A stretch of 64,000 nucleotides of DNA from Candidatus Dormiibacterota bacterium (GCA_963848445.1 CAWKDT010000001.1:330667-394666); one strand, 5' to 3'. Shown: positions 1-48,861, counted from the stretch's first letter. Program-made: numbers and translations. The notes: a model not told the origin generated them from the sequence alone.

Positions 1-328
1 CGACCACGGCGTCGTCGCCCGCGCCGTCTGGACCGCATGCCGGCCGTACCGCGCCCCGTTCGTGCGACGGTTCCTCGTCTTCGAGACGCCGTCGTCGACG
101 GAGTGGGCGTGGCCGCTCCCGGGTTCGGCCTTCAGCCCCAACCACTATGTCGACATCGCCGGCACGCTCGACGTCAAGGTGCGCGCGATGGCCTGCTACG
201 AGAGCGAGTTGCGCGAGTATCCACACCCGCGATCCGAGCGTGCCCTGCGCGAGCGAGCGGCGTTCTGGGGCAGCCACGTCGGCCGCGTCGCCGCAGAGGC
301 GTTCTGCGTGCTACGCGATATCCGATAG
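1..328 (+). CDS. PIG-L/LmbE-family N-acetylglucosaminyl deacetylase, C-terminal part. The 5' end lies outside the window.
   Basis: The reading frame runs in from the window edge. The C-terminal sequence 'HPRSERALRERAAFWGSHVGRVAAEAFCVLRDIR' resembles LmbE-like deacetylase C-termini. It is convergent with and overlaps the sugar transferase 3' end. Confidence 0.45.
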   Translation, partial: DHGVVARAVWTACRPYRAPFVRRFLVFETPSSTEWAWPLPGSAFSPNHYVDIAGTLDVKVRAMACYESELREYPHPRSERALRERAAFWGSHVGRVAAEAFCVLRDIR

Positions 329-979
329 GGGGTCGCCGCCGGCCTTGCGAAGTCCGAGCATCACCGCCAGCGTGCCGATCAACAGCGCGATCGTCGCCGC
401 AACCGTCGGCTGCTGCAGGTACTCCATGTCGAGAGCCACGCGGCGCGGCACCAGGTGGGAGATGTAAAAGCGTTCGGGATCGGCATCAGGAGGCGGCCAT
501 GCCCTGCCCATGAAAACCTGGCACGGCCCGGTCATGCCGGGGCGGTACGCGAACACCTCACGCAGCTCAGGGGGATACTGGCGCGCGAGTCCCGGCGTCT
601 CCGGCCGGGGGCCGACCAGGCTCATCTCACCCCGCAACACGTTGCCGAACTGCGGCAACTCGTCGAGATGCGCGGCGCGGAGCACTCTGCCCACCCGGGT
701 CACCCGGGGGTCATCCGGCACGGTGAACTCGGGTCCACTCGAGCGGGCGCTCATCGTGCGGAATTTGTAGAGGGTGAAGGTGGCGCCGCCCTCGCCCACG
801 CGCTGCTGCAGAAAGAGAATCGGTCCGCGGCTCGTACAGCGGATGGCGAGCGCGATCACGAAGAGCACGGGGAGCCCTGCCACCAGGACGATCGCCGAGA
901 CCGCGAGGTCGAGGGAACGCCGCGCCGCGCCGACACCGGCACGACGCCATGCGAGGGCGCTCGAGTCACTCACTGTCAT
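311..979 (-). CDS. Bacterial sugar transferase (WbaP/WcaJ-like polyprenyl-phosphate glycosyl-1-phosphate transferase, C-terminal catalytic domain type)
   Basis: An N-terminal TM helix is followed by a conserved 'ILFLQQRVGEGGATFTLYKFRTM...DELPQFGNVLRGEMSLVGPRPE' bacterial sugar transferase domain. It is the last gene of the coupled operon. Confidence 0.85.
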   Translation of the reverse strand: MTVSDSSALAWRRAGVGAARRSLDLAVSAIVLVAGLPVLFVIALAIRCTSRGPILFLQQRVGEGGATFTLYKFRTMSARSSGPEFTVPDDPRVTRVGRVLRAAHLDELPQFGNVLRGEMSLVGPRPETPGLARQYPPELREVFAYRPGMTGPCQVFMGRAWPPPDADPERFYISHLVPRRVALDMEYLQQPTVAATIALLIGTLAVMLGLRKAGGDPLSDIA

Positions 980-2175
980 GACGCCTGAGACAGCAGCTGC
1001 AGCCCGGCGGGGGACCGGCCCAGCGCATCCTCGTACAGCTCGCTCAACGCCGATGCCGCCTCCCGCGCTCCGAACCGCCCGTCCACCCAGCGCCTGCCAT
1101 TCTCGGCCATGCGCATCGCTTCACCCGGGTGCTCGAGCAGATGGCTCACCGCCGAGACACAGACCGCGGGTCGCGCGGCCGGGACGAGCAGCCCGGTTTC
1201 GCCGGTGACGATCACCTCGGGCACACCGTTGACCGCGGTGGCCACGACGGGCAGCCCGCATTGCATCGCCTCGACGACCGCGCACGGGAGCCCCTCGTAG
1301 AGGCTGGTCATCACGAAGACGTCGAGCGCGGGCAGCAGGCGCTGCACGTCGTCGCGTTCCCCGATGAAGTGCACCCGGCTGTCGATGCCCATCCGGTGGC
1401 AGCGCGCCTCGACCTCACGGCGCAGGGGTCCATCGCCGATCCACACCGCATGGACGTCCAGACGGCGCAGCCCGCGCACCACCTCCAGAAAATCGAACGG
1501 TGCCTTCTGATCGTCCATCCTTCCGACGGTGCCGATCAGCGCCGTGCCGTCCGGGATGCCGAGGTGCCGGCGGGCAATCCGCCGGCTGGCAGGATCGCAG
1601 CGGACGGAACGATCTTCGATCGAGACCGGGATGACCCGCACTCGCTCGGGCGGCGCGATGCCGAGACGTACCGCGTCGGCGCCCACCGTCGAGCTCACCG
1701 CCACGAAACGGTCCGTCAGCCGGCCCAGGCGGCGCTCGATCGCGATGAGCGCGGCCCGCTGTGGTGGATATTGAAAGCCATGGAAGGGAAAGCCGTGGAA
1801 GGTGTGCACCACGGCGGGCACCCCGGCCCGCCGCGCGGCGATGCGCCCGAGCGCACCGGCCTTCGCGCTGTGCGTGTGCACGACGTCAAACCTCCCGACC
1901 TCGAAGAGCGCGCGCAGCTCGCCGATCCCGGCGATGTCATCACGGGGAGCAACCTCCGGGCGCATGTGACGGAGGATCAAGACCTCCAATCCCTCGGCCC
2001 GGGCACGCTCGACGAGCGGCCCACCGGCCGCGGTGACGATCACCGGCTCGAACCGCTCGCGGTCGAGACCCGCCGCGCCCCGCAATGCCACGCCGCCGGC
2101 TCCCGCGATGAAGCGGGTGACCACCTGCGCGACGCGTATCCGGCCGGACGGCGCGCGCATCGTCCGCCGCGTCAT
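976..2175 (-). CDS. Family 4 (GT-B) glycosyltransferase
   Basis: A GT4 fold with the 'EGLPCAVVEAMQCGLPVVATAVNGVPEVI' C-terminal motif. The true start is the internal ATG (MTRRTM), which overlaps the flippase stop in an ATGA. The upstream 330 aa of the long ORF is an Arg-rich shadow. Confidence 0.85.
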   Translation of the reverse strand: MTRRTMRAPSGRIRVAQVVTRFIAGAGGVALRGAAGLDRERFEPVIVTAAGGPLVERARAEGLEVLILRHMRPEVAPRDDIAGIGELRALFEVGRFDVVHTHSAKAGALGRIAARRAGVPAVVHTFHGFPFHGFQYPPQRAALIAIERRLGRLTDRFVAVSSTVGADAVRLGIAPPERVRVIPVSIEDRSVRCDPASRRIARRHLGIPDGTALIGTVGRMDDQKAPFDFLEVVRGLRRLDVHAVWIGDGPLRREVEARCHRMGIDSRVHFIGERDDVQRLLPALDVFVMTSLYEGLPCAVVEAMQCGLPVVATAVNGVPEVIVTGETGLLVPAARPAVCVSAVSHLLEHPGEAMRMAENGRRWVDGRFGAREAASALSELYEDALGRSPAGLQLLSQAS

Positions 2176-3479
2176 GCCGAGCCCTCCTGGGTGCCGACGC
2201 GTCGCGCGCCGAGCGCCGCCGGCCTGCTCTGGGTGACGAAGAACGCGACGCATGCCGCGGTGGTGGTCAGGTATGCCGCTGTCGAGGCGACCGCGGCGCC
2301 CGCGATGCCCATCTTGGGGATCAACAGGAGGTCCAGGGCGATCGTGACGACGACACCCGCGGCGACACCCGTCGATGCCCTCCCCGGCATACCGTGGCCG
2401 TAGAGGTACGCGATGGCAACCGCCGCGACGCCCTCGCCGGCGAGACCGATGAGGAGGATGCATGCGGGGACCACGGCGGGCTTGAAGGCGCTCCCGAACA
2501 GGACGGGGATGACGACAAACGACAGCGCCGCCAGCGGGACGGCGGCGGCGGCGACGGCGAGTCCCGCGCGGCGCATGGTGGCACGCGCCGCGGCGCGCGG
2601 CGCGGCCCCGTCGCCACGCGCGAATCGTGGATACGCGACCCACAGCACCGCATCCGAGGGCTGACGGAGGAGTTCCGCGTATTTCGACGCCACCGCATAG
2701 ATTCCGAGCGCCGCCGGTCCCGCGACGAGGTCGACGATGATGAAGTCGAAGCGCAGGTTCATCAGCAACAAGACATTGCCGACCTGACCACGAATGGAGT
2801 ACCGCCATATCTCGCGGGCGAGGGCGAGGTCGATGCCGCCGCCATGTCGAAAGAACCCGCGCCGCCGCAGTCGCATGCCACCGATCACCGCCGTGCTGAG
2901 GCGCGAGGCGAGCAACGCGACGACGATGAGCGCGCCGTCGCGGAGTCCGGCCAGCCACAGCGCGCCGAAGGCGGGCAGGAACGTCGCCTCTTCGAGCAGG
3001 ATGATGAGGTTGCTGCCCGGGAGGTCGTTGTCGCCCTGACAGAATGACTTGAAGCTCGAGACCGCCATCTGGCTGAGCACGAGGATCCCGGTGAACGCGA
3101 CCATGCCCAGCCCGAGCTCCGGGAGGAGCAGGTGCCCGATGAGCGGCGACAGGGCGACCCATCCCAGGGCGCCGAGGACGGATCCACCTGCGGCGAGCCC
3201 GAGCAGCGTGGGAGGCAGGCTGCGTTGCTCGCCGCGCGTCCCTCCCAGGAAGTACGGCGCCGCGAGCGGCAGCCCGCCCGTGCCAAGGAACCCCGCGAGG
3301 GGCGGCAGCACCCGCAGCAGCGCGAGCGCGCCGACCCAGACGGGCCCGGCGGTGCGTGCCACGAGCAGCGTCGCCACTCCGACGGCGAACAGGGCGCCGA
3401 CCCGGGCGCCGAGATTGGTCAGGACCAGCCGGGCGCCACCGCCACGGATGAGCGCCACGCGAGCGCCGGCGAATTTCAT
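2172..3479 (-). CDS. Polysaccharide biosynthesis protein / Wzx-type flippase (MOP superfamily)
   Basis: About 12 predicted TM segments with a typical Wzx C-terminal region. The start 'MKFAGARV' overlaps the upstream stop in an ATGA. Confidence 0.75.
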   Translation of the reverse strand: MKFAGARVALIRGGGARLVLTNLGARVGALFAVGVATLLVARTAGPVWVGALALLRVLPPLAGFLGTGGLPLAAPYFLGGTRGEQRSLPPTLLGLAAGGSVLGALGWVALSPLIGHLLLPELGLGMVAFTGILVLSQMAVSSFKSFCQGDNDLPGSNLIILLEEATFLPAFGALWLAGLRDGALIVVALLASRLSTAVIGGMRLRRRGFFRHGGGIDLALAREIWRYSIRGQVGNVLLLMNLRFDFIIVDLVAGPAALGIYAVASKYAELLRQPSDAVLWVAYPRFARGDGAAPRAAARATMRRAGLAVAAAAVPLAALSFVVIPVLFGSAFKPAVVPACILLIGLAGEGVAAVAIAYLYGHGMPGRASTGVAAGVVVTIALDLLLIPKMGIAGAAVASTAAYLTTTAACVAFFVTQSRPAALGARRVGTQEGSA

Positions 3480-4759
3480 GCGCTGCGCTCCACGCCCCAG
3501 ATGCTCACCGCCGCGACGACCGCGAGCGCGGTCCACACGTAGTCAAAGTGCAGCAGCTCGTAGATGTTCGCCGTGATCGCGTAGGCCACGAGCAATCCCA
3601 CCAGCGCGCCCGGATGGCGCAGCACCGCCGCGAAGCGAGACTGGAGCGGGCCCAGCACCCGGCGTGCGTTGAAGGCGATCACGAGCAGCAGCAGGAACAG
3701 ACCGATGCCACCGATCAGACCGCGCTCCGCGATCGAGGCGGTGAAGTCGCTGTGTGCTTCAAACGCCACGCTCGCCTGTTGCGCCTGCAGGGTCGGCTTG
3801 GTCGCGCCGGGTCCGATGCCGATGAGTCCGCCATGTTCGACGAGCGCGAGCGTCTCGTGCAGCAGCGTGTCGCGACCCGCGGTGGTCTGTGCGAATCGGC
3901 CCACGTAGTCACGCAGCAGCGGGGTGCTCGCCGCCGCATCGTTGACTACGGTGTTGATGTTCACCTGGGAGCCGATCACCCCGCCCACGAGCACGACTGC
4001 GCAGGCACCCGCGATCGTCGGGACGACGCCGTACCGCCGGGCCATGGCGATGCCGGTCGCCACCGCGCACGCGGCGAGGACGGCGATCGAAAAACCGTTC
4101 GAGCCGGTGAAGACGATCGCCGCGAGCAGGAGGGCGCCCGCCCCCACCCTCGCGATCCGGCGCCGCGGGGTCGCCGACGCCCAGACGATCATCAGGCTCG
4201 AGGCGAAGTACCCGGCCGCGATATTGGGATCGCCGAACGTGATCGAGGCGCGGTTCCCCTCGCGTGCGGTGATTCCCGACAGCACGTCGATGTTGGCCAG
4301 CGCGCCCAGCAGCATCAGACCCGCCCACACCAGGCTCGCGTATGCCCAGGTTCGCAGCACCGGGGACAGCCCGCCGGGAGTCCGGCATATGGTCACGACC
4401 GTGGTGCTCCAGGCGAGGAGAAACAGGTCCTGCAGCACGGCGAGCAGCCCGCTTCCGGGATAGACGCTGAAGAACGAGGCGATCAACCCGCCGAGTGCCA
4501 TCACGCCGACGGGCACCACGTACGGCACGCGAATGGGCAGGCGATCCGCGAGGGCCCAGCACAACGTCGCCGCCATGGACAGGGCCATGAGGCAGTCGGC
4601 GGGGGCGACGTTCCCGGGACCCGAGGGCTGGAGAAACGGCAGGATCGCGATGGCCGCGCATGTGGTGCCGACGGCCAACCGGCGCCACGGCAGCAGGGCG
4701 GGCCGCGCCGCCATGCGCCGGGGCAGCACGAGCCGGCGGTCGAGCACCATCGCCATCAC
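3476..4759 (-). CDS. O-antigen ligase/polymerase-like membrane protein (Wzy/WaaL family)
   Basis: A multi-TM protein with an O-antigen-ligase-like periplasmic loop ('FTGSNGFSIAVLAA'). It sits between the flippase and a kinase. Confidence 0.65.
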   Translation of the reverse strand: MMAMVLDRRLVLPRRMAARPALLPWRRLAVGTTCAAIAILPFLQPSGPGNVAPADCLMALSMAATLCWALADRLPIRVPYVVPVGVMALGGLIASFFSVYPGSGLLAVLQDLFLLAWSTTVVTICRTPGGLSPVLRTWAYASLVWAGLMLLGALANIDVLSGITAREGNRASITFGDPNIAAGYFASSLMIVWASATPRRRIARVGAGALLLAAIVFTGSNGFSIAVLAACAVATGIAMARRYGVVPTIAGACAVVLVGGVIGSQVNINTVVNDAAASTPLLRDYVGRFAQTTAGRDTLLHETLALVEHGGLIGIGPGATKPTLQAQQASVAFEAHSDFTASIAERGLIGGIGLFLLLLVIAFNARRVLGPLQSRFAAVLRHPGALVGLLVAYAITANIYELLHFDYVWTALAVVAAVSIWGVERSA

Positions 4760-5781
4760 GCAGCTCCGGGCAGTGCCGCGGACGGCATGCGAGCCAGCAC
4801 ACGCAGGTGGTCGCGCGCGAAGCCGTCGTCGTCGGCTCGCGCCGCCACCTCCGCAACGCCCGCAACGACGGCATCGCGCCAGAGTTCCCCGGGCACACCG
4901 AGACGGCGCATGCCGAGGCGGAGGAAGGCACGCAAGAGATCACAGATCCACCCGTCACCGTCCAGCAGGTAGTGGATGCCACAGCCCCAGGTGGTGGCGC
5001 GGAGGCCCGGATGTCCGGCCACCGACGCTCCCGGACGGGTGTGCCTGTCGAGGTAGAGAGCGTACGTGAGCGCAAACCTGGCAAGGTCGCGCAACGGCTC
5101 GCCGCGCAACTCGGCCTCCTCCCAGTCGACGACACCCGTCACCGCTCCGTCGCCCACCAGCACATTGCCGCACCAGAGATCGCCGTGGACGGCGGTGCGA
5201 GGCGCGCGGTGACGCCGCAGCGTCGCGCACGCGTGCTCCACACGGGCGAGCACCTCCGGCAGCTCGGGTTCGCCGCGAAAACGTTCGCGCAGACGCTGCA
5301 CCGTCCCACCGTCCATCTCGACGCACGCCTCGCCGTCCGCGGTCTCCTGATGAAACCGGCTGAGCCACTCGGCGACTGCGCCGAGGTCGCTCGCGACGCG
5401 GCGCGGCGACCGCGTATGTCTCCAGCGGTGGTAGAGCGTCGTCATCGGCGTTCCGGGGAGGAGCGTGAGCACCATCGCGTCGAGACCACCGGAGCTCACG
5501 GTCTCGAGCGGCAGCGGCGCCGTCGACCGGATGACGCTCGAGCCGAGGTTGTGCAGCGCATCGAGCATGCGCCGCTCGCGCGCCACCGCGGCGGCGCCGG
5601 CCGCGGTCGTCGGCACCTTGACCGCCAGACGCGGCAGCCGCGGATCGTCCGGCAGCACCAGCACGGTCACCTTGCCGTTGGGATCGCGCGACGCGCCCAG
5701 CACCGCCATGCGCACGCTCGGGTCTCCGACGATGTCCAGGAGGTCGCGGCGGGATCCGGTGACCGCCGCCATGGCGGTCAT
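4756..5781 (-). CDS. Phosphotransferase-family kinase (APH / choline-ethanolamine kinase fold)
   Basis: Brenner motif 'HGDLWCGNVLV' and a downstream 'VVDWEEA' (DxE/D) motif typical of the APH/ChoK superfamily. Confidence 0.7.
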   Translation of the reverse strand: MTAMAAVTGSRRDLLDIVGDPSVRMAVLGASRDPNGKVTVLVLPDDPRLPRLAVKVPTTAAGAAAVARERRMLDALHNLGSSVIRSTAPLPLETVSSGGLDAMVLTLLPGTPMTTLYHRWRHTRSPRRVASDLGAVAEWLSRFHQETADGEACVEMDGGTVQRLRERFRGEPELPEVLARVEHACATLRRHRAPRTAVHGDLWCGNVLVGDGAVTGVVDWEEAELRGEPLRDLARFALTYALYLDRHTRPGASVAGHPGLRATTWGCGIHYLLDGDGWICDLLRAFLRLGMRRLGVPGELWRDAVVAGVAEVAARADDDGFARDHLRVLARMPSAALPGAA

Positions 5782-6200
5782 GCGCGCCAGCCGACCGCGA
5801 TCCGCGAGCGCAGCAGGCGGCGTGCCGGCTTGAACCGCCCCGCCACACCGCCGGCGCGGAGCAGGGCGGCGGCCGGACCGGCGAGTCGCACCAACCCCGG
5901 GGGGACACTCAAAAACGCGCTGCAGAGCAGCGCCAGCGGCACCGCGTCGTCCTCGACGAGGTACGCGGGCGACGCCGCCGACGGAAGCGCGATCAGCTCA
6001 CGAGTGACACGGACACCGGCGGCGCGGGCCAGCGCATGCACAGAGGTGCTGCTGCCGCGCAGGACCACACCACGTCCTCGAGGCAGCGCGCGCAGCCTGG
6101 CGGCGGCAGCGTGGCGGGCGCGGCGCCCGCGCGGCACGTCGACGACCACCGCGTCCGCCGCGGTGAGCACCTGGTATCGCTGCGCCCACGTCGCGTTCAA
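5778..6200 (-). CDS. Hypothetical protein (Ala/Arg-rich, 140 aa)
   Basis: It is translationally coupled (4-nt overlaps) to both neighbours within the operon. No recognizable motif was found. Confidence 0.4.
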   Translation of the reverse strand: MNATWAQRYQVLTAADAVVVDVPRGRRARHAAAARLRALPRGRGVVLRGSSTSVHALARAAGVRVTRELIALPSAASPAYLVEDDAVPLALLCSAFLSVPPGLVRLAGPAAALLRAGGVAGRFKPARRLLRSRIAVGWRA

Positions 6201-7654
6201 TTCATCCCCGCGATCGGTCGCATCCGGGCGACGGGACGGACGATGCCGTTGCGGACCAGGATGTCGAGCCCGGCGGTGACGCCGCGGTCATCCAGGTGCG
6301 GCACGCGCTCGGGAGCCGCGGTGTCGTAGCGGAACCTCAGCGTCGACCGTCCCTGCGGATCCACCGCGGAGAGCCCGCGCTTTTCGAAATCGGCGATGAT
6401 CGTGCCCGTTCCGTGGCACGTCGTGTGCAGGGTGGCATCGGCATCGTCGCCCGCGACGCAGAGGAAGGAGGACGTGCGGTTGGACCCTGGAAGGAGCACC
6501 GGTTGACCGGTCGTGGCAAACACGGGGTGCGCTGCCATCATCGCCGCGGGAAACGCGCGTGAGGAATTGTGGCGGTGCATCACGACGCTCTCGCCGCGCA
6601 GCTCCTCCTCGTACATCGAGTCGTGCGGCGAGTCGACGATGAGCCGGTCGCGGTTGATCCCCAGCACCTCGCGCGCGATGCCGCGCAGGGCCGCATACGT
6701 GGCCAGGCGGAACGCGAAGCCGTAGTTCATCGCCAGCGCGTTGGCGAGGAGCAGGCGATCGCCCTCGGAGCTGTGGCGCGGCACTGCCGGACAACCATCG
6801 CGGAAGTAGAGGCCGAGCCTCGCTCGCAGGTCCGCGACCGAGCGCGCGGAGGCCAGGTGGTACAGGGGCTTCTCCACCGCCATCACCGCACGATGCTTGC
6901 GCGGATAGTCGATACGCCGCCCGAACAGGCGCCCGATCGCACCGGTCAGGATCCCTCCGCCACCGTGGTACTGCAGCGTGAGCTGGCCCGCCACGATCCC
7001 CAGCCGGCGCGCCGTCTCCGGCTCGTAGATCTCCTCGACACGCTGCAGCTCGATGAAGTGGTTGCTGGGACCGATGATCCCGAAGCGGAAGCGCGACAGC
7101 TGGATGAGCAGCCAGGGGAGCTGCCGTCGCGCGCGGTGGATGCCGCCATACGCGTCGAGGTCCAGCCGGCCTCCCTCCTCGATGCGATCGAGGTCGGCGG
7201 CCGCGATGCCATACCGCTCGGCGGCGAAGCGGGCGCCGTCGAGGGCGCACCGCGCAACCTCATCCGACGACAGGTCAAAGCGGTTGCCGGACGGGTACGG
7301 CAACCGCTTCCGGACGCTGTCGAAGAACGCAGCCAGGGCGGTATCGGATGGCTCGTCGGTGTCGAACGCCATCAGCGCCATGCCGCAGTTCACGGCCGCG
7401 CTCGTGAGCGTCGGACGGATCGTCTCGCGCGTTGCGATGGCGATGCTCGACGGCATCTCGACGTTGCGCTTGTGGTGGAAGTCCGGGAGCACCACCGGCG
7501 GCGCCGCGAGATCCATGCCGCGCACGGATTCCTCCAGGCGCTCGACGAGCGCCGCATCGGCCCGCGTGTCGTCGCTCTCGAACACCGACGGCTTGGAGGT
7601 GCTTCCACCCCGGTACGAGGTGACGGGCAGTGGCAGCGCCGGCGCGGCCATCAT
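6197..7654 (-). CDS. RtcB-family (RNA 3'-phosphate ligase-like) protein
   Basis: 'IGPSNHFIELQRVEEIY' matches the RtcB 'GSGNH[FY]xEIQ' motif. The N-terminal 'PDFHHKRN...AAVNCGM' region and C-terminal 'CHGTG' resemble the RtcB metal-site motifs. The chosen start is the internal ATG-ATG overlapping the upstream stop (ATGA). The 104 aa upstream in the ORF track is an Arg-rich GTG-initiated extension. Confidence 0.7.
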   Translation of the reverse strand: MMAAPALPLPVTSYRGGSTSKPSVFESDDTRADAALVERLEESVRGMDLAAPPVVLPDFHHKRNVEMPSSIAIATRETIRPTLTSAAVNCGMALMAFDTDEPSDTALAAFFDSVRKRLPYPSGNRFDLSSDEVARCALDGARFAAERYGIAAADLDRIEEGGRLDLDAYGGIHRARRQLPWLLIQLSRFRFGIIGPSNHFIELQRVEEIYEPETARRLGIVAGQLTLQYHGGGGILTGAIGRLFGRRIDYPRKHRAVMAVEKPLYHLASARSVADLRARLGLYFRDGCPAVPRHSSEGDRLLLANALAMNYGFAFRLATYAALRGIAREVLGINRDRLIVDSPHDSMYEEELRGESVVMHRHNSSRAFPAAMMAAHPVFATTGQPVLLPGSNRTSSFLCVAGDDADATLHTTCHGTGTIIADFEKRGLSAVDPQGRSTLRFRYDTAAPERVPHLDDRGVTAGLDILVRNGIVRPVARMRPIAGMN

Positions 7655-8640
7655 GCGCACGTCGACCGCTCCGCCGCTTCGAGAATGTGGTGCAAGCGCA
7701 GCTCGCAGTGCAGGGGCAGACCAACCTCCACGCAGGCAAGGCGCCGGGTGATCGTGGCGGACGTCTCGGCGATCGCGGGATGGATGGGGCCGAGCCCGGT
7801 TGCGGTGGCCACGGTCGCGGCGAACTCCCAATACCGCCGCAGCTCCCCGGCCATGTACGTCCCACCGGTCAGCGAGCGCGCCGCCGCGATCGAGCTGCAT
7901 TGCGTGACGGCCAGGGCGCCGTCCACGCTGCGCCGGAGCACGACGACGACGTCCGGGGTCAGGCACGCGGCGCGCTGCGGTAGCGCCGTCTCACGCCGGC
8001 CATGCGGCATCCGCCGGCCCGTGGCTCCCTCGACACGGACGGGCTCGACCACGCCCCAACACTGCGTGCCGTCGCTGACGCAGAGGTTGTCGGAGGTCGC
8101 GACCCCACCCTGGCGCAACTCGCGCATGAGCAGCGTGGTCTTGCCGGCACCCGCGGGACCGGCGAGGAGCATCGCGCTGCCCCCGGCACCGAGCACCGCC
8201 GCGTGGAGCGGCACCGCGCCGCGGGTCGACGCCCACCACATCGCCGGGTACTGCAGGAGCGCGGCGCGCACCAGGAGGTGGAAACGCGCACGCAGCGCCA
8301 TCGAGGCACCCCGCGTGGCCGGCGGGGGCCGCCAGCGGTAGGTGATCACCGGACGGTCGTCGATCACGCTGAGTCGCAGGTCGAACCCCGAGGTGCAGAC
8401 GTCGCGCATCACCAGGTCGCCCGCACCGGCCCATGCGGACCGCGACAGCGGCGTCAACCCGGACGTTTCGAAGGCATCGCGTGAGCGCTCGACTCGGATG
8501 GAGAGCTGCGTGGGTCCTGCCGGAACCGCAGCCTCGGGCCTCATCGTGTCCGCGCAGCATTCGGCCAGGAGCCGGGCCACCCAGGGCAACTCGCAGTCCA
8601 CTCCGACGCGCACGCCGGCGGTGCTGACCACGGCTTGCAT
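7651..8640 (-). CDS. HPr-kinase-related P-loop kinase (HprK C-terminal-like domain)
   Basis: Walker A 'GPAGAGKTT' is followed by 'SDN' and a Gly-rich segment, as in HprK-related kinases. There is no HPr-kinase N-domain. Confidence 0.55.
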   Translation of the reverse strand: MQAVVSTAGVRVGVDCELPWVARLLAECCADTMRPEAAVPAGPTQLSIRVERSRDAFETSGLTPLSRSAWAGAGDLVMRDVCTSGFDLRLSVIDDRPVITYRWRPPPATRGASMALRARFHLLVRAALLQYPAMWWASTRGAVPLHAAVLGAGGSAMLLAGPAGAGKTTLLMRELRQGGVATSDNLCVSDGTQCWGVVEPVRVEGATGRRMPHGRRETALPQRAACLTPDVVVVLRRSVDGALAVTQCSSIAAARSLTGGTYMAGELRRYWEFAATVATATGLGPIHPAIAETSATITRRLACVEVGLPLHCELRLHHILEAAERSTCA

Positions 8641-10134
8641 CTACCAGTCGTCCGGGTAGGGAGCGACCGCTGCCATAGGGTCGCCGACGGTGGGCCGATA
8701 GCCGGGAACGAGCATGGCGAGGCGGCGACGCACCTCCGCCATGTTGTTCGCGCTGCTCGCCGCGAACAGTTGCTGCACCGCGGCCTCGAAGCCCGCGGGC
8801 GGCTCCGTGTTGGTGCGTGAGCTCCAGATCTTGGGATGGGCGGTCGGGGTGCGTTCCTCGTTCTCGCTGACCAGTATCTCGTCGAGCTTCTCGCCTGGCC
8901 GCAGCCCGGTGAACCGAATCACCACGTCGTTGGTGCGATGGAGTTGCTCGGTGTACGCGCGCACCAGGTCGACGATCAGCACCGGATCGCCCATGTCGAG
9001 GACGAAGACCTCTCCGTCCGACGCCATCACAGCCGCTTCGAGGACCAGCCCGACGGCCTCTTCGACGGTCATGAAGAAACGGGACACGTCGGGGTGGGTG
9101 ATCGTGACCACCTCCCCCTTCTCGATCTGCGACTCCAGGACCGACAGGAGGGAGCCGCGGCTGCCGAGGACGTTGCCGAAGCGAACAGATGCGATCCGGG
9201 TGTCGCGGCCGGCATAGGAGCGAAGGATCATCTCGGCGAGGCGCTTGGTCGCACCAAGCACCGAACTGGGATCCGCCGCCTTGTCGGTCGAGATGAGGAT
9301 GACGCGTTCCACTCCCGAAGCAACGGCGCACTCGATGATGTTGTACGTGCCGGCGACATTGGTCTTCACCCCCTCGCACGGGTGGCGCTCCAGGAGTGGA
9401 AGATGCTTGTGGGCGGCCGCATGGAAGACGACCTCCGGCCTCAGCTCGGCGAACAGTTGCTGCACCCTTCTGCGATCGCGGATGTCGGCGATGATGATGT
9501 CGTCCGAATCGAGCAGGCCGTGTCCGCGCAGCTCGAGCTGCAGGCGATGCAGGTTGGACTCGTCGTGATCGAGCATGTAGAGCGCCGCCGGACCGAAGTG
9601 ATCGATCTGGCGGCAGAGCTCGCTACCGATGGACCCGCCTGCTCCGGTCACCAGGACGCGGCGCCCGGCGATGACCGAGCGCGACGACGAACGGATGACA
9701 TGCACCTCGTCCCGGCCGAGCAGCGTGTCGACGCGAACGCTGCGCAGGTCGGAGATACGCACGTCGCGCTCGAGCGCGGAGACGAAGGACGGCAGGAAGC
9801 GGACCATCAGCCCGACGGAATGCGCGCGGGCAGCGATCGCGGCGATGCGCCGGGGCGACAGCGAGGGGATCGTCACGAGCGCCACGTCCACGTCGTTCGC
9901 CACCGCCACGTCGGCCATGTCGCTGATGCTGCCGAGCACCGGCAACCCGGCGACCTGCCGCCGGTGCGGGTTGTCGTCGAGGAAGCCGATCGGTGCCAAG
10001 CCGTACTCGGGCACCCTCCGGAGCGCGTGCGCCATCGTCCGGCCCGCCTCGCCGGCGCCGATGAGCAGCGAGCGCAGCGCCGCCGAGCGCACGCGTGGTT
10101 CCGGCGCGATGCGACCTTCCAGCTCGAGCATCAC
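8641..10134 (-). CDS. Nucleotide-sugar 4,6-dehydratase/epimerase (CapD/PglF/WbpM family polysaccharide biosynthesis protein)
   Basis: An N-terminal Rossmann-like region is followed by a second 'VLVTGAGGSIGSEL' NAD site and a YxxxK dehydratase core. Confidence 0.85.
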   Translation of the reverse strand: MMLELEGRIAPEPRVRSAALRSLLIGAGEAGRTMAHALRRVPEYGLAPIGFLDDNPHRRQVAGLPVLGSISDMADVAVANDVDVALVTIPSLSPRRIAAIAARAHSVGLMVRFLPSFVSALERDVRISDLRSVRVDTLLGRDEVHVIRSSSRSVIAGRRVLVTGAGGSIGSELCRQIDHFGPAALYMLDHDESNLHRLQLELRGHGLLDSDDIIIADIRDRRRVQQLFAELRPEVVFHAAAHKHLPLLERHPCEGVKTNVAGTYNIIECAVASGVERVILISTDKAADPSSVLGATKRLAEMILRSYAGRDTRIASVRFGNVLGSRGSLLSVLESQIEKGEVVTITHPDVSRFFMTVEEAVGLVLEAAVMASDGEVFVLDMGDPVLIVDLVRAYTEQLHRTNDVVIRFTGLRPGEKLDEILVSENEERTPTAHPKIWSSRTNTEPPAGFEAAVQQLFAASSANNMAEVRRRLAMLVPGYRPTVGDPMAAVAPYPDDW

Positions 10135-11315
10135 TGCACACCCACCGCATCCGCAACGGCTTCACACACGCGGTCGACGTCTGCGTCGCTGAGGCGCGGG
10201 TGCATCGGCAGCGACAGGACGCGATCCGCGGCCTCGTCCGTTCCCGGAAGCAGCCCCGCGTGGTCGCCGAGCGTTTCCCGGAAATAGCTGAGCTGATGCA
10301 CCGGGATGAAGTGCACCGAGCACCCGATGCCGGCGTCCTCGAGGTTCGCCGCGACGGTGTCGCGACACGTGCCGCGCCCGCCCTCGATCTGGACCACGAA
10401 GAGGTGCCACGCATGGCGCCCGTCGGAGGACTCGATGGGCAGGAGCACGCCCGCGACCTCCGCGAGGAGACTGCGATATCGCTCCGCGATCTGCTCGCGC
10501 CGAGCCTGCCAGGCCGGCAGATGCCGCAGCTGGGCCCGGCCCATGGCGGCGGTGACATCGGTCATGTTCGCCTTGATACCGGCAACTTCGATGTCATACC
10601 GCCAGGTGCCACCCGGGAGGTACCGCCGCCAGGCGTCCTTGCTCATTCCGTGGAGCCGGGCGCGGCGAAGATACGACGCGATGAGGTCGTTCTCCGTCGT
10701 GACCATGCCACCCTCGCCGAGCGGGAGATTCTTGGTCGCATAGAAGCTGAAACAGGTCGCTCCGGACACCGTGCCGATGTCACGCCCCCCCGGCGCGCGC
10801 GTCCACAACGCGTGGGCGGCGTCCTCGACGACGAGATCCAGCGGGAGCCCTGCGGCATCCGCCAACGCGGCGACATCCGCCGGTGCTCCTCCGTAGTGCA
10901 TCACCACCATCGCACTCGGTCGCGGACCCCGCCCGGCTGCGGCGGCGACATGCTCCGGTGTGGGCATCAGCGTCCGCGGATCGACGTCGACGAGGACGGG
11001 CTGCAACCCGGCCTGAAGAATCGCGTGCACCGCGCCCGCGAACGTCATGGACGGTGTGAGGACGCGCGACCGCGGGGGGAGATCGAGGGCGCGGAGCGCC
11101 AGCTGCAGACCGGCGGTGCACGACGACACCGCAACGGCGTGCCGGGCCCCGACCACGGCCGCGAACTCGCTCTCGAATGCGCCGACCTCCGGGCCCGAGG
11201 TGACCCAACCACCGCTCAGTGCTCGGACGGCGGCCGCCCGCGCGTCGGGCGTGATATCCACAACGCAGAATGGGATCGGCTCGGGCCGGGACTCGACGGC
11301 TGCGACGGCGGTCAT
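10131..11315 (-). CDS. DegT/DnrJ/EryC1/StrS-family PLP-dependent sugar aminotransferase
   Basis: Typical family sequence 'FSFYATKNL' with the PLP lysine in a 'SFxxxK' context. It overlaps both neighbours by 4 nt. Confidence 0.85.
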   Translation of the reverse strand: MTAVAAVESRPEPIPFCVVDITPDARAAAVRALSGGWVTSGPEVGAFESEFAAVVGARHAVAVSSCTAGLQLALRALDLPPRSRVLTPSMTFAGAVHAILQAGLQPVLVDVDPRTLMPTPEHVAAAAGRGPRPSAMVVMHYGGAPADVAALADAAGLPLDLVVEDAAHALWTRAPGGRDIGTVSGATCFSFYATKNLPLGEGGMVTTENDLIASYLRRARLHGMSKDAWRRYLPGGTWRYDIEVAGIKANMTDVTAAMGRAQLRHLPAWQARREQIAERYRSLLAEVAGVLLPIESSDGRHAWHLFVVQIEGGRGTCRDTVAANLEDAGIGCSVHFIPVHQLSYFRETLGDHAGLLPGTDEAADRVLSLPMHPRLSDADVDRVCEAVADAVGVQ

Positions 11316-12589
11316 GACACCAACACCGCGGAAGCCTGGTCTCCCGCGACCTCGCCGTTTCCCTGCTCAGGGATCGCGGCGTTCGTGGCATCGCCGCGCC
11401 GCCGGTGCCATCCCATGGGCCGCCGGCGGGGCGCGATGATGGCACCGAGAATCGAAACTCCCTCGCTTCCACGAAGCTCCGCTGCCTCATCGATCGTTCG
11501 CAGCGGCAGCACCGGGGGAACCACGACCACCAAGGCGCATCGGGGATTGACCGCTTCCACGGAAACGGCCGCACGGATGCTGAATGAGGGACGCCCGGCG
11601 GCGCGGACCACCTCGGGCTTGGTCGCCTGGAGCCGCCGCGCGACGTCGCTCAAGTCCTCGTCCCGGTTCCAGAGGAGCACCGTCGAGGCTCGGACGTGCT
11701 CTGCAGCGCGGCGGACCCGCGCGCTGATCACGAGGACGTTCGATCGGCTTGCGTCCGCGGTCATGACGCCGAGCACCGGTGCTCCCAGGGCCCGCTCGAT
11801 CGCTTCGCGGCCCACGAGCGTCGGCCGCAGTGATTCCAGCAATGCGGCGAGCGCAACGCCGACGATGAGACCCGCGAGCGCGCCCAGGATGAGGTCGAGC
11901 GGCAGCCGCGACGGGTCGGCCAGCGTCGGCCGGGTTGCCGGCGCGATCACGCCGGCGCCCACGCTCTGCGCAATCTGTTGCTGGACATCGGCGCGCTTGG
12001 TGATCAGCGCGGTCATCTGCTGGGCGTCATCACTCTGCCGCGCCAGCAACGCCGCGGCGGTGGGGGAGTTCGGAGCAGCCGTCGCGAGCTGCAACTCGAC
12101 GGTGTCGATATCCGCGCTGAGCCCAGTGATCTGAGCCTGCAGCTGCGCCTCCAACTGCTCGCTCGGTTGCCGCTGTTCGGCGTTGATGGTGGCCACCGCC
12201 CCGGAGGCGAGGGCGTTGGCCACCGAAGCGGCGACGCGCGCGTCGGTGTCCGTCACCGACAGCTCGAGGATGCTCGAGTCGCTCAGCGACTGTGTGTCGA
12301 TCTCTCGCGCGAACTTCACGATGTCGCGTACGGCGCCGGCATCGGCGAGCGCCGCTCTGATGCGGTCCGGGCTTGTCACGATCCCCTGAACGGTGCCGGC
12401 AAGAGCGGACGCCCAATCAGCGGTTTGGGGGACGCCCCCACCAAGGACGAGTCGCTCCGACGCGGTGTAGGTTGTCTTCTCGAAGACCCTGTGCACGGTG
12501 AATCCGGCCGCAAGACCTGCGACGAGGCACGCAAGGATGATCAGCCCCCGGACTCGAAAGATGCGTTGCGCCGCTTCACGGATTTCCAT
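11312..12589 (-). CDS. Polysaccharide chain-length determinant (Wzz/PCP family) with degenerate C-terminal BY-kinase-like domain
   Basis: An N-terminal TM and a Q/A-rich coiled coil precede a second TM ('LDLILGALAGLIVGVALAALL'). The C-terminal ~170 aa has no Walker A. Confidence 0.65.
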   Translation of the reverse strand: MEIREAAQRIFRVRGLIILACLVAGLAAGFTVHRVFEKTTYTASERLVLGGGVPQTADWASALAGTVQGIVTSPDRIRAALADAGAVRDIVKFAREIDTQSLSDSSILELSVTDTDARVAASVANALASGAVATINAEQRQPSEQLEAQLQAQITGLSADIDTVELQLATAAPNSPTAAALLARQSDDAQQMTALITKRADVQQQIAQSVGAGVIAPATRPTLADPSRLPLDLILGALAGLIVGVALAALLESLRPTLVGREAIERALGAPVLGVMTADASRSNVLVISARVRRAAEHVRASTVLLWNRDEDLSDVARRLQATKPEVVRAAGRPSFSIRAAVSVEAVNPRCALVVVVPPVLPLRTIDEAAELRGSEGVSILGAIIAPRRRPMGWHRRRGDATNAAIPEQGNGEVAGDQASAVLVS

Positions 12590-12629: not shown

Positions 12630-13406
12630 TCAATTAACTCTGTACAAAGCGCGCATCGCGCGCATCGGCACCGCGGATGAGCCCACGCTCACCCGTTTGC
12701 GGTAGTCACCATGCTCGCCGGGCGTTGCGCTCGGCCCGGCGATTCCGACCACGGACGGCCTCACGCCGCACCGGAACGCGAAGTGGACTGCCTCGAGGCT
12801 CGAGTGAACACCGAGCTTCGCGTAACAGTTCTGCGTGTGCGTTCGGATCGTGTTCCGGCTCACACCCAGATGCCTGGCGATCGCATCACGATCGATGCCG
12901 GCGACCATGCAGTCGAGCACTGCCCGCTCGCGCTCGCTCAACCGCAACAGACGCGCCCGGTCCTCCTCGCGGTCCGAGCGACGCGCCTGGAGCCCGCGGA
13001 TCACCGATGTCAACATCCGCGGCGGGACCGAGATCTCGTCGGACATGGCATCGCGAATCGCCTGCACCAGAGTGGCGGTCGAGGAGTCCGCTGCGACCCA
13101 CGCGTGAGCGCCTTCGCACAGGCAGTCGCACACGATCTGAGGATCTTCGTCGTCGCCGATCACCACGACTCGCAGGTCGGGCAGCGCCTCGCGAAGCCGC
13201 CGCGTCAGGTCGGATGCGGCGACGCCGTACGAGAGCGCCCCCATGACCACGACATCCGGCCGCATCACCTGCGCGGCCAGGCAGGCCTGGGCATCCTTGT
13301 TCGCGGTCCCCAGGATGACGATTCCCTCCTCGGACGCCAACCGCATGGCGATCGCATCGCCGACCAGCGGTTGCCCGTCGGCGATCAGCACCCTCACCCC
13401 ACTCAC
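12630..13406 (-). CDS. LuxR/NarL-family transcriptional regulator with atypical (pseudo-)receiver domain
   Basis: It has a C-terminal LuxR HTH. The receiver-like N-domain has Gly at the phospho-Asp position ('VVVMGALSYG') and lacks the conserved Lys. It lies 40 bp upstream of wzz. Confidence 0.75.
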   Translation of the reverse strand: MSGVRVLIADGQPLVGDAIAMRLASEEGIVILGTANKDAQACLAAQVMRPDVVVMGALSYGVAASDLTRRLREALPDLRVVVIGDDEDPQIVCDCLCEGAHAWVAADSSTATLVQAIRDAMSDEISVPPRMLTSVIRGLQARRSDREEDRARLLRLSERERAVLDCMVAGIDRDAIARHLGVSRNTIRTHTQNCYAKLGVHSSLEAVHFAFRCGVRPSVVGIAGPSATPGEHGDYRKRVSVGSSAVPMRAMRALYRVN

Positions 13407-20710: not shown

Positions 20711-20785
20711 TGGTCGGGGCGACTGGACTCGAACCAGCGACCCCCTGCTCCCAAAGCAGGTGCGCTACCACTGCGCCACGCCCCG
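20711..20785 (-). tRNA. tRNA-Pro (anticodon TGG), CCA encoded
   Basis: The reverse complement folds as a cloverleaf. The acceptor stem is CGGGGCG/CGCCCCG. The anticodon stem-loop CCTGC-TTTGGGA-GCAGG gives anticodon UGG. The T-arm is GGTTCGAGTCC. Confidence 0.85.
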
Positions 20786-48411: not shown

Positions 48412-48777
48412 CGCTCCTCCTTGACGCCGTGTGACCGTTCCATCTCGGCAATTCCTACTCTCGTCGCATGCCCTCCTGCCGAGAGCGGCCACCGCGGCCC
48501 GCGCTCGTGCCGCGACGCCGAAGGGTGCGGGGTGACGGTCGAAGCCGACGCGGTATGCGGCCATCCGCGCGGCGGTGACCGACGCTAGTCCTTGACGCAC
48601 GTCCATCCACCGGTACGGGAGCGAGAACACTCGTCCCGAATCTGCTGCCGAGCAACGAAGTCAAGCAAATATGTGCGGCCCACAATGGTGAGCGCGGGCA
48701 CTCGAGGATCGCGAATCCATCAGCACCTCGGCCTGCTCACGGCGGCAGCATCGTGGCCTGCGATCTCACGCGGAGAG

Positions 48778-48861
48778 TGCCGAGGAAGGGAATCGAACCC
48801 TTACGCCCTTACGAGCACAGCGCCCTGAACGCTGCGTGTCTACCAGTTCCACCACCTCGGC
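48778..48861 (-). tRNA. tRNA-Leu (anticodon CAG), long variable arm, no encoded CCA
   Basis: The reverse complement GCCGAGGTGGTGGAACTGGTAGACACGCAGCGTTCAGGGCGCTG...GGTTCGATTCCCTTCCTCGGCA has the acceptor GCCGAGG/CCTCGGC and the anticodon loop TTCAGGG. Confidence 0.85.

Follow-up and report, generated by a model that had tools for sequence, protein, structure and literature searches.

The stretch of DNA analyzed here, a window of 64,000 nucleotides from a Candidatus Dormiibacterota bacterium (GCA_963848445.1, CAWKDT010000001.1:330667-394666), carries a Wzx/Wzy glycan pathway in which an unprecedented module is embedded. This module associates a diverged RtcB-family enzyme with a P-loop kinase of the PEPCK/HprK fold. 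Sequence comparisons suggest that the chemistry of RNA ligases has been co-opted to form phosphate links within a glycan. We propose, with a probability of roughly 0.4, that the RtcB family includes a large unrecognized clade of nucleoside triphosphate (NTP)-dependent phosphodiester ligases for lipid-linked envelope glycans, associated with a PEPCK/HprK-fold kinase acting on glycans or alcohols. With it, the RtcB fold would acquire a new enzymatic role, an assignment which we put forward tentatively. The initial annotation, made from the sequence of the window, had placed four consecutive genes at positions 4756-8640 inside a Wzx/Wzy glycan operon (an HprK-like kinase, an RtcB homolog, a small open reading frame (ORF) and a kinase of the APH fold), and their exact coordinates on the minus strand were confirmed.

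The RtcB-like protein matches the Pfam family PF01139 with 136.4 bits (cut-off 27) over profile positions 16-421 of 426 and aligns end to end with Pyrococcus horikoshii RtcB (1uc2, E 2e-30). It scores far under the cut-offs of the NCBIfam RtcB equivalog models, and no curated NCBIfam model covers it. In RtcB, the roles of the metal ligands and catalytic residues have been described, the M1 site being formed by Cys98, His234 and His329 and the M2 site by Asp95, Cys98 and His203 (PMC9745838). With equivalences given as P. horikoshii RtcB numbering = window protein numbering, the residues kept are D65=D58, H67=H60, C98=C90, N202/H203/F204/E206=N198/H199/F200/E202, H234=H230, H329=H344, S385=S396 and H404=H414. 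The histidine nucleophile is present, as H414 in the motif TCHGTG aligns with P. horikoshii His404, and the M1 site is whole (C90, H230 and H344, all invariant). The M2 site is incomplete: the equivalents of C98 and H203 are kept and D95 is replaced by Ala87. Seven of the eight catalytic ligands listed for alignment are conserved, D95 alone being lost, and the motifs SNHFIELQ, TCHGTG, PDFHHK and AAVNCGM are all present. Across 16 subfamily members (57-81% identity), the equivalents of H404, C98, H234, H329, H203, N202, F204, E206 and S385 are invariant, among about 150 invariant residues in the subfamily, active site included. The same catalytic residues, nucleophile included, are kept in nearly all full-length cluster representatives examined. 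This conservation shows that the catalytic core is under strong purifying selection.

With canonical RtcB enzymes (P. horikoshii, E. coli and human RTCB), the protein shares the fold, a full-length alignment, the nucleophile, the M1 site and most catalytic residues, and it probably uses the same three-step nucleotidyl-transfer chemistry. It differs from them in several features: Ala or Ser at the D95 position, PDxHxKxxxE instead of PDxHxGYG, a replaced Y451/PxAYK motif, and the loss of arginines. P. horikoshii R190 is replaced by L, R238 by G (within an invariant HGGGG), R408 by T and Q194 by R. In RtcB, Arg190 and Arg238 grip the phosphates of the 5'-OH polynucleotide, while Asn202 anchors the attacking hydroxyl and contacts the phosphate of the nucleoside monophosphate (NMP) (PMC8051266). 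The RtcB-like enzyme has thus lost the polynucleotide handles. Two residues, Glu206 and Lys480, make guanine-specific contacts in RtcB, Lys480 with guanine O6; the former is kept (E202) and the latter is absent from the subfamily of the window, whose protein ends in ...RPIAGMN, with no Lys, whereas other clade members retain ...LK(G).

At the level of the whole glycan-associated clade, the N-terminal motif reads PD[FLI]HxKxxxE (PDxHxGYGxP in canonical RtcB), the motif around Cys98 reads [ST]SxSxNCGM with Ser or Ala at the Asp95 position (GYDINCG in canonical RtcB) and the C-terminal motif reads HxxD[ED]G[IV] (PxAYK in canonical RtcB). The residue at the Asp95 position is mostly Ser, and no acidic residue lies within nine residues upstream of the Cys; the MAFFT column for D95 is unreliable for canonical-like sequences in the mixed alignment, and the position was read from the ungapped context around the Cys. 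Candidates for replacing Asp95 at M2 are the clade-invariant K62, E66 and S69-S70 of PDFHHKRNVEMPSS, together with HRHN 360-363. In the subclade fused to Wzx (see below), the bridging Cys98 is itself changed to Asp, giving N-D-G-M for N-C-G-M (L087 10001-12991; P0350, P0402, P0413 and P0416), a change suggestive of a harder metal (Mg or Mn, for example) and of an enzyme insensitive to oxidation.

An alternative is that the protein is still a nucleic-acid enzyme, active in RNA repair, tRNA ligation or capping, and co-transcribed with envelope genes, for example through a coupling to envelope stress. All characterized RtcB enzymes act on nucleic acids, a 2023 review of the family lists only nucleic acids as substrates, and the full-length RtcB domain with its intact His nucleophile and M1 site is consistent with this view. 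It is made very improbable by the loss of R190, R238 and R408, by the fusions to a flippase and to the PEPCK/HprK-fold kinase, and by a clade-wide glycan context which is absent from canonical RtcB loci. Moreover, no RtcA, RtcR, archease or PrfH was found in the operon, where the neighbors are all glycan genes; the absence of the first three had already been noted, and the small ORF is not archease-like. By its profile and most of its catalytic residues, the protein falls within the RtcB superfamily. It departs from the RNA-ligase functional class in three respects: the Asp of M2, the contacts with the polynucleotide and the partner genes nearby.

The association with glycan genes is not peculiar to the window. 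Databases contain over 1500 homologs of the RtcB-like protein, and a scan of one genome per species identified 226 species genomes encoding a relative. The closest ones are from Candidatus Dormibacterota metagenome-assembled genomes (MAGs) (82-85% identity), and cultured carriers include Kribbella, Terrabacter, Intrasporangium, Dactylosporangium, Nonomuraea and Pedococcus. For the neighborhood survey, 12 window proteins were searched against these loci and counts were taken from the 51 loci flanked by 9 kb or more in both directions. The HprK-fold kinase, DegT and the family 4 glycosyltransferase (GT4) were found in every one of them, GT4 often adjoining the RtcB-like gene, while Wzy_C, APH, CapD and Wzz-like homologs were nearly as frequent (Table 1); most misses of Wzx and Bac_transf lie beyond the fetched flank. 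Gene order varies between lineages and the gene set is kept in these 51 loci, which span several phyla. In Kribbella and Terrabacter, for instance, CapD is followed by the RtcB-like gene, with the kinase 3-8 kb downstream, past a giant beta-helix/PKD protein. A set that persists through such rearrangement argues for a functional linkage more strongly than frozen synteny would, and independent metagenomic loci give the same picture. Collectively, these data show that the RtcB-like enzyme is specifically and obligately partnered with the PEPCK/HprK-fold kinase. DegT and GT4 are linked to it as tightly as the kinases are.

A chance juxtaposition of pseudogenes or inactive passengers, for which the loss of D95 could be read as a sign of inactivation, is effectively refuted by this survey, in which the association holds in 51/51 loci from several phyla despite changes in gene order. 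The same conclusion is drawn from the roughly 150 invariant residues, the coding signature at third codon positions, the fusions and the translational coupling. The survey proposed along with the initial annotation was strongly positive. As for the possibility, also raised there, that the genes form a common and already characterized cassette, they are indeed common, and no characterization was found in the literature: searches on RtcB in glycan, kinase or flippase contexts returned no description of a glycan role, a passing mention elsewhere being possible.

As a control, 22 loci of the glycan clade were compared with 61 canonical RtcB loci (571 kb) from the metagenome scan. Among the former, Wzy_C was found in 10, GT4 in 9, the small protein in 8, APH in 7, Wzx in 7 and the HprK-fold kinase in 8 by phmmer, or in 11, plus the intermediate locus L106, by hidden Markov model (HMM). 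Among the latter, a single GT4 was found and none of the five others. The RtcB protein of L106 (1983-4459) is an intermediate form, with PDIHRKARNP and a retained PGAFKD motif, and an HprK-fold kinase is encoded directly upstream; the kinase partnership may accordingly predate the loss of the canonical RtcB motifs. In the same control set, the canonical RtcB genes of L118, L131, L133 and L171 encode about 1000 amino acids (aa); these genes probably contain inteins, unrelated sequence preceding the active-site NCG motif.

Searches of cluster representatives revealed a gradient of RtcB-like relatives down to about 25% identity, including two gene fusions. P0299 (885 aa, Chloroflexota; four independent full-length records) combines the HprK-fold kinase with the RtcB-like domain, while P0336 (996 aa, from an Eisenbacteria MAG; two records) combines a Wzx flippase with it, and the two sit in different glycan clusters. 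Distant clade members (30-45% identity) are again located in glycan loci, next to GT4, Wzy_C, Wzx, APH, Metallophos and HprK-fold kinase genes. By Pfam, the 77 neighbors in ten clade loci include GT4 (7), Wzy_C (4), Metallophos (4), APH (3), Wzx (3) and CDP-OH_P_transf (2). The HprK-fold kinase is present in L089 and L090. It is absent from L087, L091 and L109, where a gene for a cytidine diphosphate (CDP)-alcohol phosphotransferase (30.7-31.8 bits with Pfam, cut-off 22) lies beside the RtcB-like gene: directly after it in L087 (13000-14076), within 3 nucleotides in L091 (1487-2326) and overlapping it in L109 (6902-7678). No separate cytidylyltransferase was seen in these three loci. Judging from this arrangement, the CDP-alcohol phosphotransferase is an alternative partner of the RtcB-like enzyme.

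The four genes, which had been presented as one unit, do co-occur, and are better described as two pairs. In a few loci (L021, L038, L049, L058 and L079), APH and the small ORF are missing together, all else being kept. With an iterated HMM, the small protein was detected in 59 of 80 genome loci, 58 of which also encode APH; in 56 loci it is immediately upstream of APH on the same strand, and in 2 loci (L014 and L086) it is fused in frame to APH. Its co-occurrence, adjacency and fusion with the APH kinase indicate that it is a partner or an N-terminal domain of this kinase. The cassette thus comprises a core pair, the HprK-fold kinase and the RtcB-like enzyme, and an accessory pair, the small protein and APH. 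The two fusion genes are found at L014 11402-12973 and L086 5798-9565, in two species. The same N-terminal domain may also be present in several further APH proteins from related loci, which are long, at 420-492 aa.

A mechanism can be proposed from these data, in which a nucleotide-activated phosphomonoester is converted into a phosphodiester on a lipid-linked glycan; we give even odds to this general scheme, for which we infer the substrates, the nucleotide used and the product. The repeat unit would be started on undecaprenyl phosphate (Und-P) with a sugar of the 4-amino-4,6-dideoxy-HexNAc type (CapD, DegT and Bac_transf) and extended by the single GT4, and a cytoplasmic two-enzyme module would add phosphate chemistry before flipping by Wzx. 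First, the PEPCK/HprK-fold kinase would phosphorylate a hydroxyl of the lipid-linked unit or of a small alcohol. Second, the RtcB-like enzyme would load a nucleotide on its own His414, probably guanosine monophosphate (GMP), since the guanine-reading Glu is kept. Third, this nucleotide would be moved onto the phosphomonoester, leading to an R-O-P-P-N anhydride, and fourth, a second hydroxyl, positioned by Asn198, would attack the anhydride to form the phosphodiester and release NMP. Overall, this would be the RtcB reaction with sugar or alcohol substrates replacing RNA ends. In relatives devoid of the kinase, the last step may fall to a membrane CDP-alcohol phosphotransferase whose gene comes immediately behind that of the RtcB-like enzyme, and the APH kinase with its small partner would add or prepare a second phosphorylated group. 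CDP-alcohol phosphotransferases catalyze the chemistry of the third RtcB step, in which an alcohol attacks a phosphoester activated by a nucleoside diphosphate (NDP) and expels NMP. A phosphodiester on a sugar or polyprenyl-linked intermediate, as already envisaged in the initial annotation, is plausible. The fusions to Wzx and to the kinase add weight to it, as do the neighboring CDP-alcohol phosphotransferases.

The main rival, in our view unlikely, is that the RtcB-like enzyme ensures activation only, by stopping after step 2 and releasing an NDP-sugar or NDP-alcohol. It would then replace a nucleotidyltransferase acting on a sugar-1-phosphate or an alcohol phosphate, one kinase making the phosphate ester and GT4, or the CDP-alcohol phosphotransferase where present, using the product. 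AmgK/MurU, NahK and LicA/LicC offer examples of anomeric kinases combined with nucleotidyltransferases. Pfam and profile scans identified no nucleotidyltransferase among the operon genes. The invariable presence of GT4, often beside the RtcB-like gene, and the CDP-alcohol phosphotransferases which follow or overlap the RtcB-like gene in L087, L091 and L109, where neither HprK-fold kinase nor separate cytidylyltransferase is found, fit this view equally well. In addition, RtcB enzymes can form stable pp-G caps, as shown for DNA3'pp5'G and for capping by RtcB3 (PMC8051266, PMC10630183). On the other hand, fusion with Wzx locates the enzyme next to the lipid-linked unit, at the membrane, and not in soluble precursor metabolism, and Asn202, required for sealing, is kept almost universally, a weak argument since this residue also serves step 2. 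Furthermore, Glu206 predicts GDP-linked products, and CDP-alcohol phosphotransferases normally take CDP donors.

A different phosphate chemistry on the glycan seems less probable still, for example the formation or opening of a cyclic phosphate on a sugar, comparable to the 2',3'-cyclic phosphodiesterase step of RtcB, or the formation of a phosphoramidate with the free 4-amino group of the DegT product. As DegT is invariant and no N-acetyltransferase is present among the operon genes, a free amine is likely, and Metallophos phosphoesterases account for 4 of the 77 neighbors in distant loci. In addition, the active site of RtcB is able to handle a cyclic phosphate (PMC3458531). Clade members in L088 and L091 are found in loci without DegT or CapD, so that a role specific to the amine cannot be general.

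Returning to phosphodiester formation, several observations weigh against it. The M2 ligand D95 is missing, with Ala here and Ser in most of the clade, and E. coli RtcB depends on its counterpart of this Asp; the activity may thus be altered or need a compensating residue. With Lys480 absent from the subfamily and another sequence in place of the Y451 motif, the nucleotide is uncertain. No obvious donor of the second alcohol is encoded in the operon, and two kinases exceed the need of the simple model. Finally, the CDP-alcohol phosphotransferase neighbors fit equally well a role limited to making an NDP-activated phosphoester.

Among known systems, a close parallel is the pneumococcal-type teichoic acid decorated with phosphocholine, a Wzx/Wzy-dependent polymer relying on the LicA kinase, the LicC cytidylyltransferase and the LicD transferase. 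Both systems build the unit on Und-P, have a first sugar of the 4-amino-4,6-dideoxy-HexNAc type, rely on Wzx/Wzy-like steps and encode an APH-fold kinase, and they would share the logic of phosphorylation, nucleotide activation and transfer as a phosphodiester. In contrast to the pneumococcal system, the window operon has no cytidylyltransferase, LicD or TagF-type transferase, encoding instead the RtcB-like enzyme and the PEPCK/HprK-fold kinase, and its relatives are hosted by Dormibacterota, Actinomycetota and Chloroflexota. The presence of CapD and DegT without an acetyltransferase suggests a free amine on the sugar; together with phosphate, it would make the polymer teichoic-acid-like and possibly zwitterionic, by analogy. 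A literature search for structures of Kribbella cell-wall glycopolymers returned nothing usable. The module is also reminiscent of RNA heal-and-seal kits (Pnkp/Hen1), with a P-loop kinase, in some loci a calcineurin-like phosphoesterase, and a nucleotidyl-transferring ligase; its components come from other families, glycans or alcohols are its predicted substrates, and its genes lie in a glycan assembly context. Canonical RtcB differs in context, the RtcB-like gene being found in glycan loci, with Wzx or HprK-fold kinase fusions and no RtcA, RtcR, archease or PrfH.

If this proposal is correct, a universal chemistry of RNA repair and tRNA splicing extends to the biosynthesis of the cell envelope. 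It would constitute a third route to phosphodiester glycopolymers, the two others relying on CDP-alcohol/LicD/TagF-type transferases and on sugar-1-phosphate transferases, and would be widespread among the Actinomycetota, Dormibacterota and Chloroflexota of soils. It would thereby provide a new enzymatic way to phosphodiester-bearing surface polymers, teichoic-acid-like and possibly zwitterionic, in abundant and poorly studied soil phyla, and give a function to two large families of hypothetical proteins, the PEPCK/HprK-fold kinase and the small partner of APH. The question lends itself to direct tests, since the locus occurs in cultured hosts, and the fusions hint at which proteins belong in the same assay.

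Regarding the kinases, the description of the P-loop protein as HprK-like is correct at the level of the fold (PEPCK/HprK), and over 257 aligned residues its N-terminal domain is similar to the PEPCK N-domain. It reaches no curated HprK family at cut-off (ScmC, 27 bits for a cut-off of 125; HprK_rel_A, 20 for 200; FomB, 16.8 for 400) and is a member of none of them. Profile comparison aligns its region 138-194 marginally with the P-loop region of HprK (E 0.095). The Walker A motif G164-x-G166-K-T-T169, H146 and Asp184-Asn185 are invariant in 35 homologs, H146 and D184 being presumably the counterparts of the catalytic His and Asp of HprK. Compared with HPr kinase/phosphorylase, lasso-peptide kinases, FomB, ScmC and the HprK-related kinases A and B, whose cut-offs are far above its scores, it has no HPr or peptide substrate gene nearby, its partner being the RtcB-like enzyme in a glycan locus. 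In L090, a DXP-synthase-like transketolase, a flavin mononucleotide (FMN)-dependent dehydrogenase and a radical SAM/SPASM enzyme, then two small ORFs, are encoded at 6148-10378, downstream of HprK-like, methyltransferase, RtcB-like and Wzx genes, a curious neighborhood given the weak similarity of the kinase to ScmC, from the SynChlorMet cassette.

The APH kinase matches PF01636 with 75 bits (cut-off 23.2) and contains the expected Brenner motif, HGDLWCGN (H199-G-D201-LWCG-N206), and the Mg-binding D219 in VVDWEE, as read from the translation. Its nearest solved relatives, hygromycin B 4-O-kinase (2e-4) and macrolide 2'-phosphotransferase (1e-3), phosphorylate sugar hydroxyls of antibiotics. 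It was assigned to no characterized subfamily among Mph, APH(4), Cph, LicA/choline kinase and homoserine kinase II (10-25 bits with NCBIfam models whose cut-offs are 194-725). The small ORF has 34 recognizable homologs with sharply conserved motifs, which identifies it as a real protein; its structure model is poor, with weak similarity to generic alpha/beta folds only. Its identification as an archease was rejected, as neither the profile nor the fold matched, and so was its derivation from the methyltransferase whose gene, in L090, separates those of the kinase and the RtcB-like enzyme (hhalign probability 0.1%). An anti-phage defense system was also considered and rejected, PADLOC returning no match for any of the four proteins.

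The operon, a contiguous run of 11 genes on the minus strand from 12589 to 311, starts with the Wzz-like gene and ends with Bac_transf (Table 1). The presence in one operon of Bac_transf (2e-51), GT4 (7e-35), Polysacc_synt_3 (4e-9) and Wzy_C (1.5e-10) by Pfam identifies it as a Wzx/Wzy-dependent glycan assembly locus. The Wzz-like gene has no Pfam match, and its label as a polysaccharide co-polymerase (PCP) comes from its position and its hydrophobic segments, located N-terminally and mid-protein. The four cassette genes and their flanking genes had been described as joined by 4-nucleotide stop-start overlaps. Read from the DNA, this holds for all internal junctions (HprK/RtcB, ATGA; RtcB/small, TTGA; small/APH, ATGA) and for APH/Wzy_C (GTGA), and it does not for CapD/HprK-like, where the TAG stop of CapD abuts the ATG of the kinase. 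All other junctions from the Wzz-like gene to Bac_transf are ATGA, GTGA or TTGA overlaps, and this translational coupling supports the predicted co-expression with the glycan genes. For the RtcB-like gene, the public call is a protein of 487 aa with a GTG start at 7660. In the window, whose G+C content is about 70%, the four cassette genes have a G+C content at third codon positions (GC3) of 0.84-0.88, with GC3 > GC1 > GC2, while overlapping shadow ORFs on both strands have a GC3 of 0.49-0.78 and lack the coding signature.

Table 1. Genes of the glycan operon and the adjacent regulator in the window, with the frequency of homologs in the 51 surveyed loci.
Product	Coordinates	Strand	Assignment	Loci
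LuxR-type response regulator, just upstream of the operon	12630..13406	-	Pfam GerE and Response_reg	36/51
Wzz/PCP-like membrane protein, 425 aa, first gene	11312..12589	-	Position and hydrophobic segments	44/51
DegT/PglE-like sugar aminotransferase	10131..11315	-	Pfam DegT_DnrJ_EryC1, E 7e-103	51/51
CapD/PglF-like UDP-HexNAc 4,6-dehydratase	8641..10134	-	Pfam Polysacc_synt_2, E 3e-100	47/51
PEPCK/HprK-fold P-loop kinase, 329 aa, core partner of RtcB-like	7651..8640	-		51/51
Diverged RtcB-family enzyme, 485 aa, ATG start	6197..7654	-	Pfam PF01139; alignment with P. horikoshii RtcB	
Small conserved protein, 140 aa, TTG start	5778..6200	-	No known family	
APH-fold kinase (aminoglycoside/macrolide/choline-kinase-like), 341 aa, accessory	4756..5781	-	Pfam PF01636	47/51
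Wzy_C-family polymerase/ligase	3476..4759	-	Pfam Wzy_C, E 1.5e-10	48/51
Wzx-type flippase, start MKFAG at 3479, ATGA overlap	2172..3479	-	Pfam Polysacc_synt_3 and Polysacc_synt	
GT4 glycosyltransferase, start MTRRT at 2175	976..2175	-	Pfam Glycos_transf_1, E 7e-35; Glyco_trans_4_4	51/51
Small Bac_transf phosphoglycosyl transferase, initiating enzyme, last gene	311..979	-	Pfam Bac_transf, E 2e-51	

Other features of the related loci were recorded. Large, secreted-looking proteins with a right-handed beta-helix (Pel9A/NosD-like) and PKD repeats recur in or beside them (L084 11373-15677; L027 11502-15992; L001 from 20614; L005 from 19699; L087 14043-15884) and directly follow the RtcB-like gene in Kribbella and Terrabacter; they may be processing or depolymerizing enzymes for the same polymer. 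Two further fusions involve CapD, one with DegT (L006 6345-9020, 891 aa, in a close relative of the window) and one with Bac_transf (L087 5053-7497, 814 aa, in the Eisenbacteria locus). In some actinobacterial loci, a Lactamase_B_2 protein with a weak Rieske-like match, absent from the window, is encoded between glycosyltransferase and Bac_transf genes (L001 17112-18725; L005 17285-18847). Past the LuxR gene, the window contains no further glycan, RNA-repair or archease genes. A tRNA-Leu(CAG) was called by ARAGORN at 48777-48861 on the minus strand and was not reported by the Rfam tRNA model at its gathering threshold, the sole tRNA called by both being tRNA-Pro at 20711-20785.

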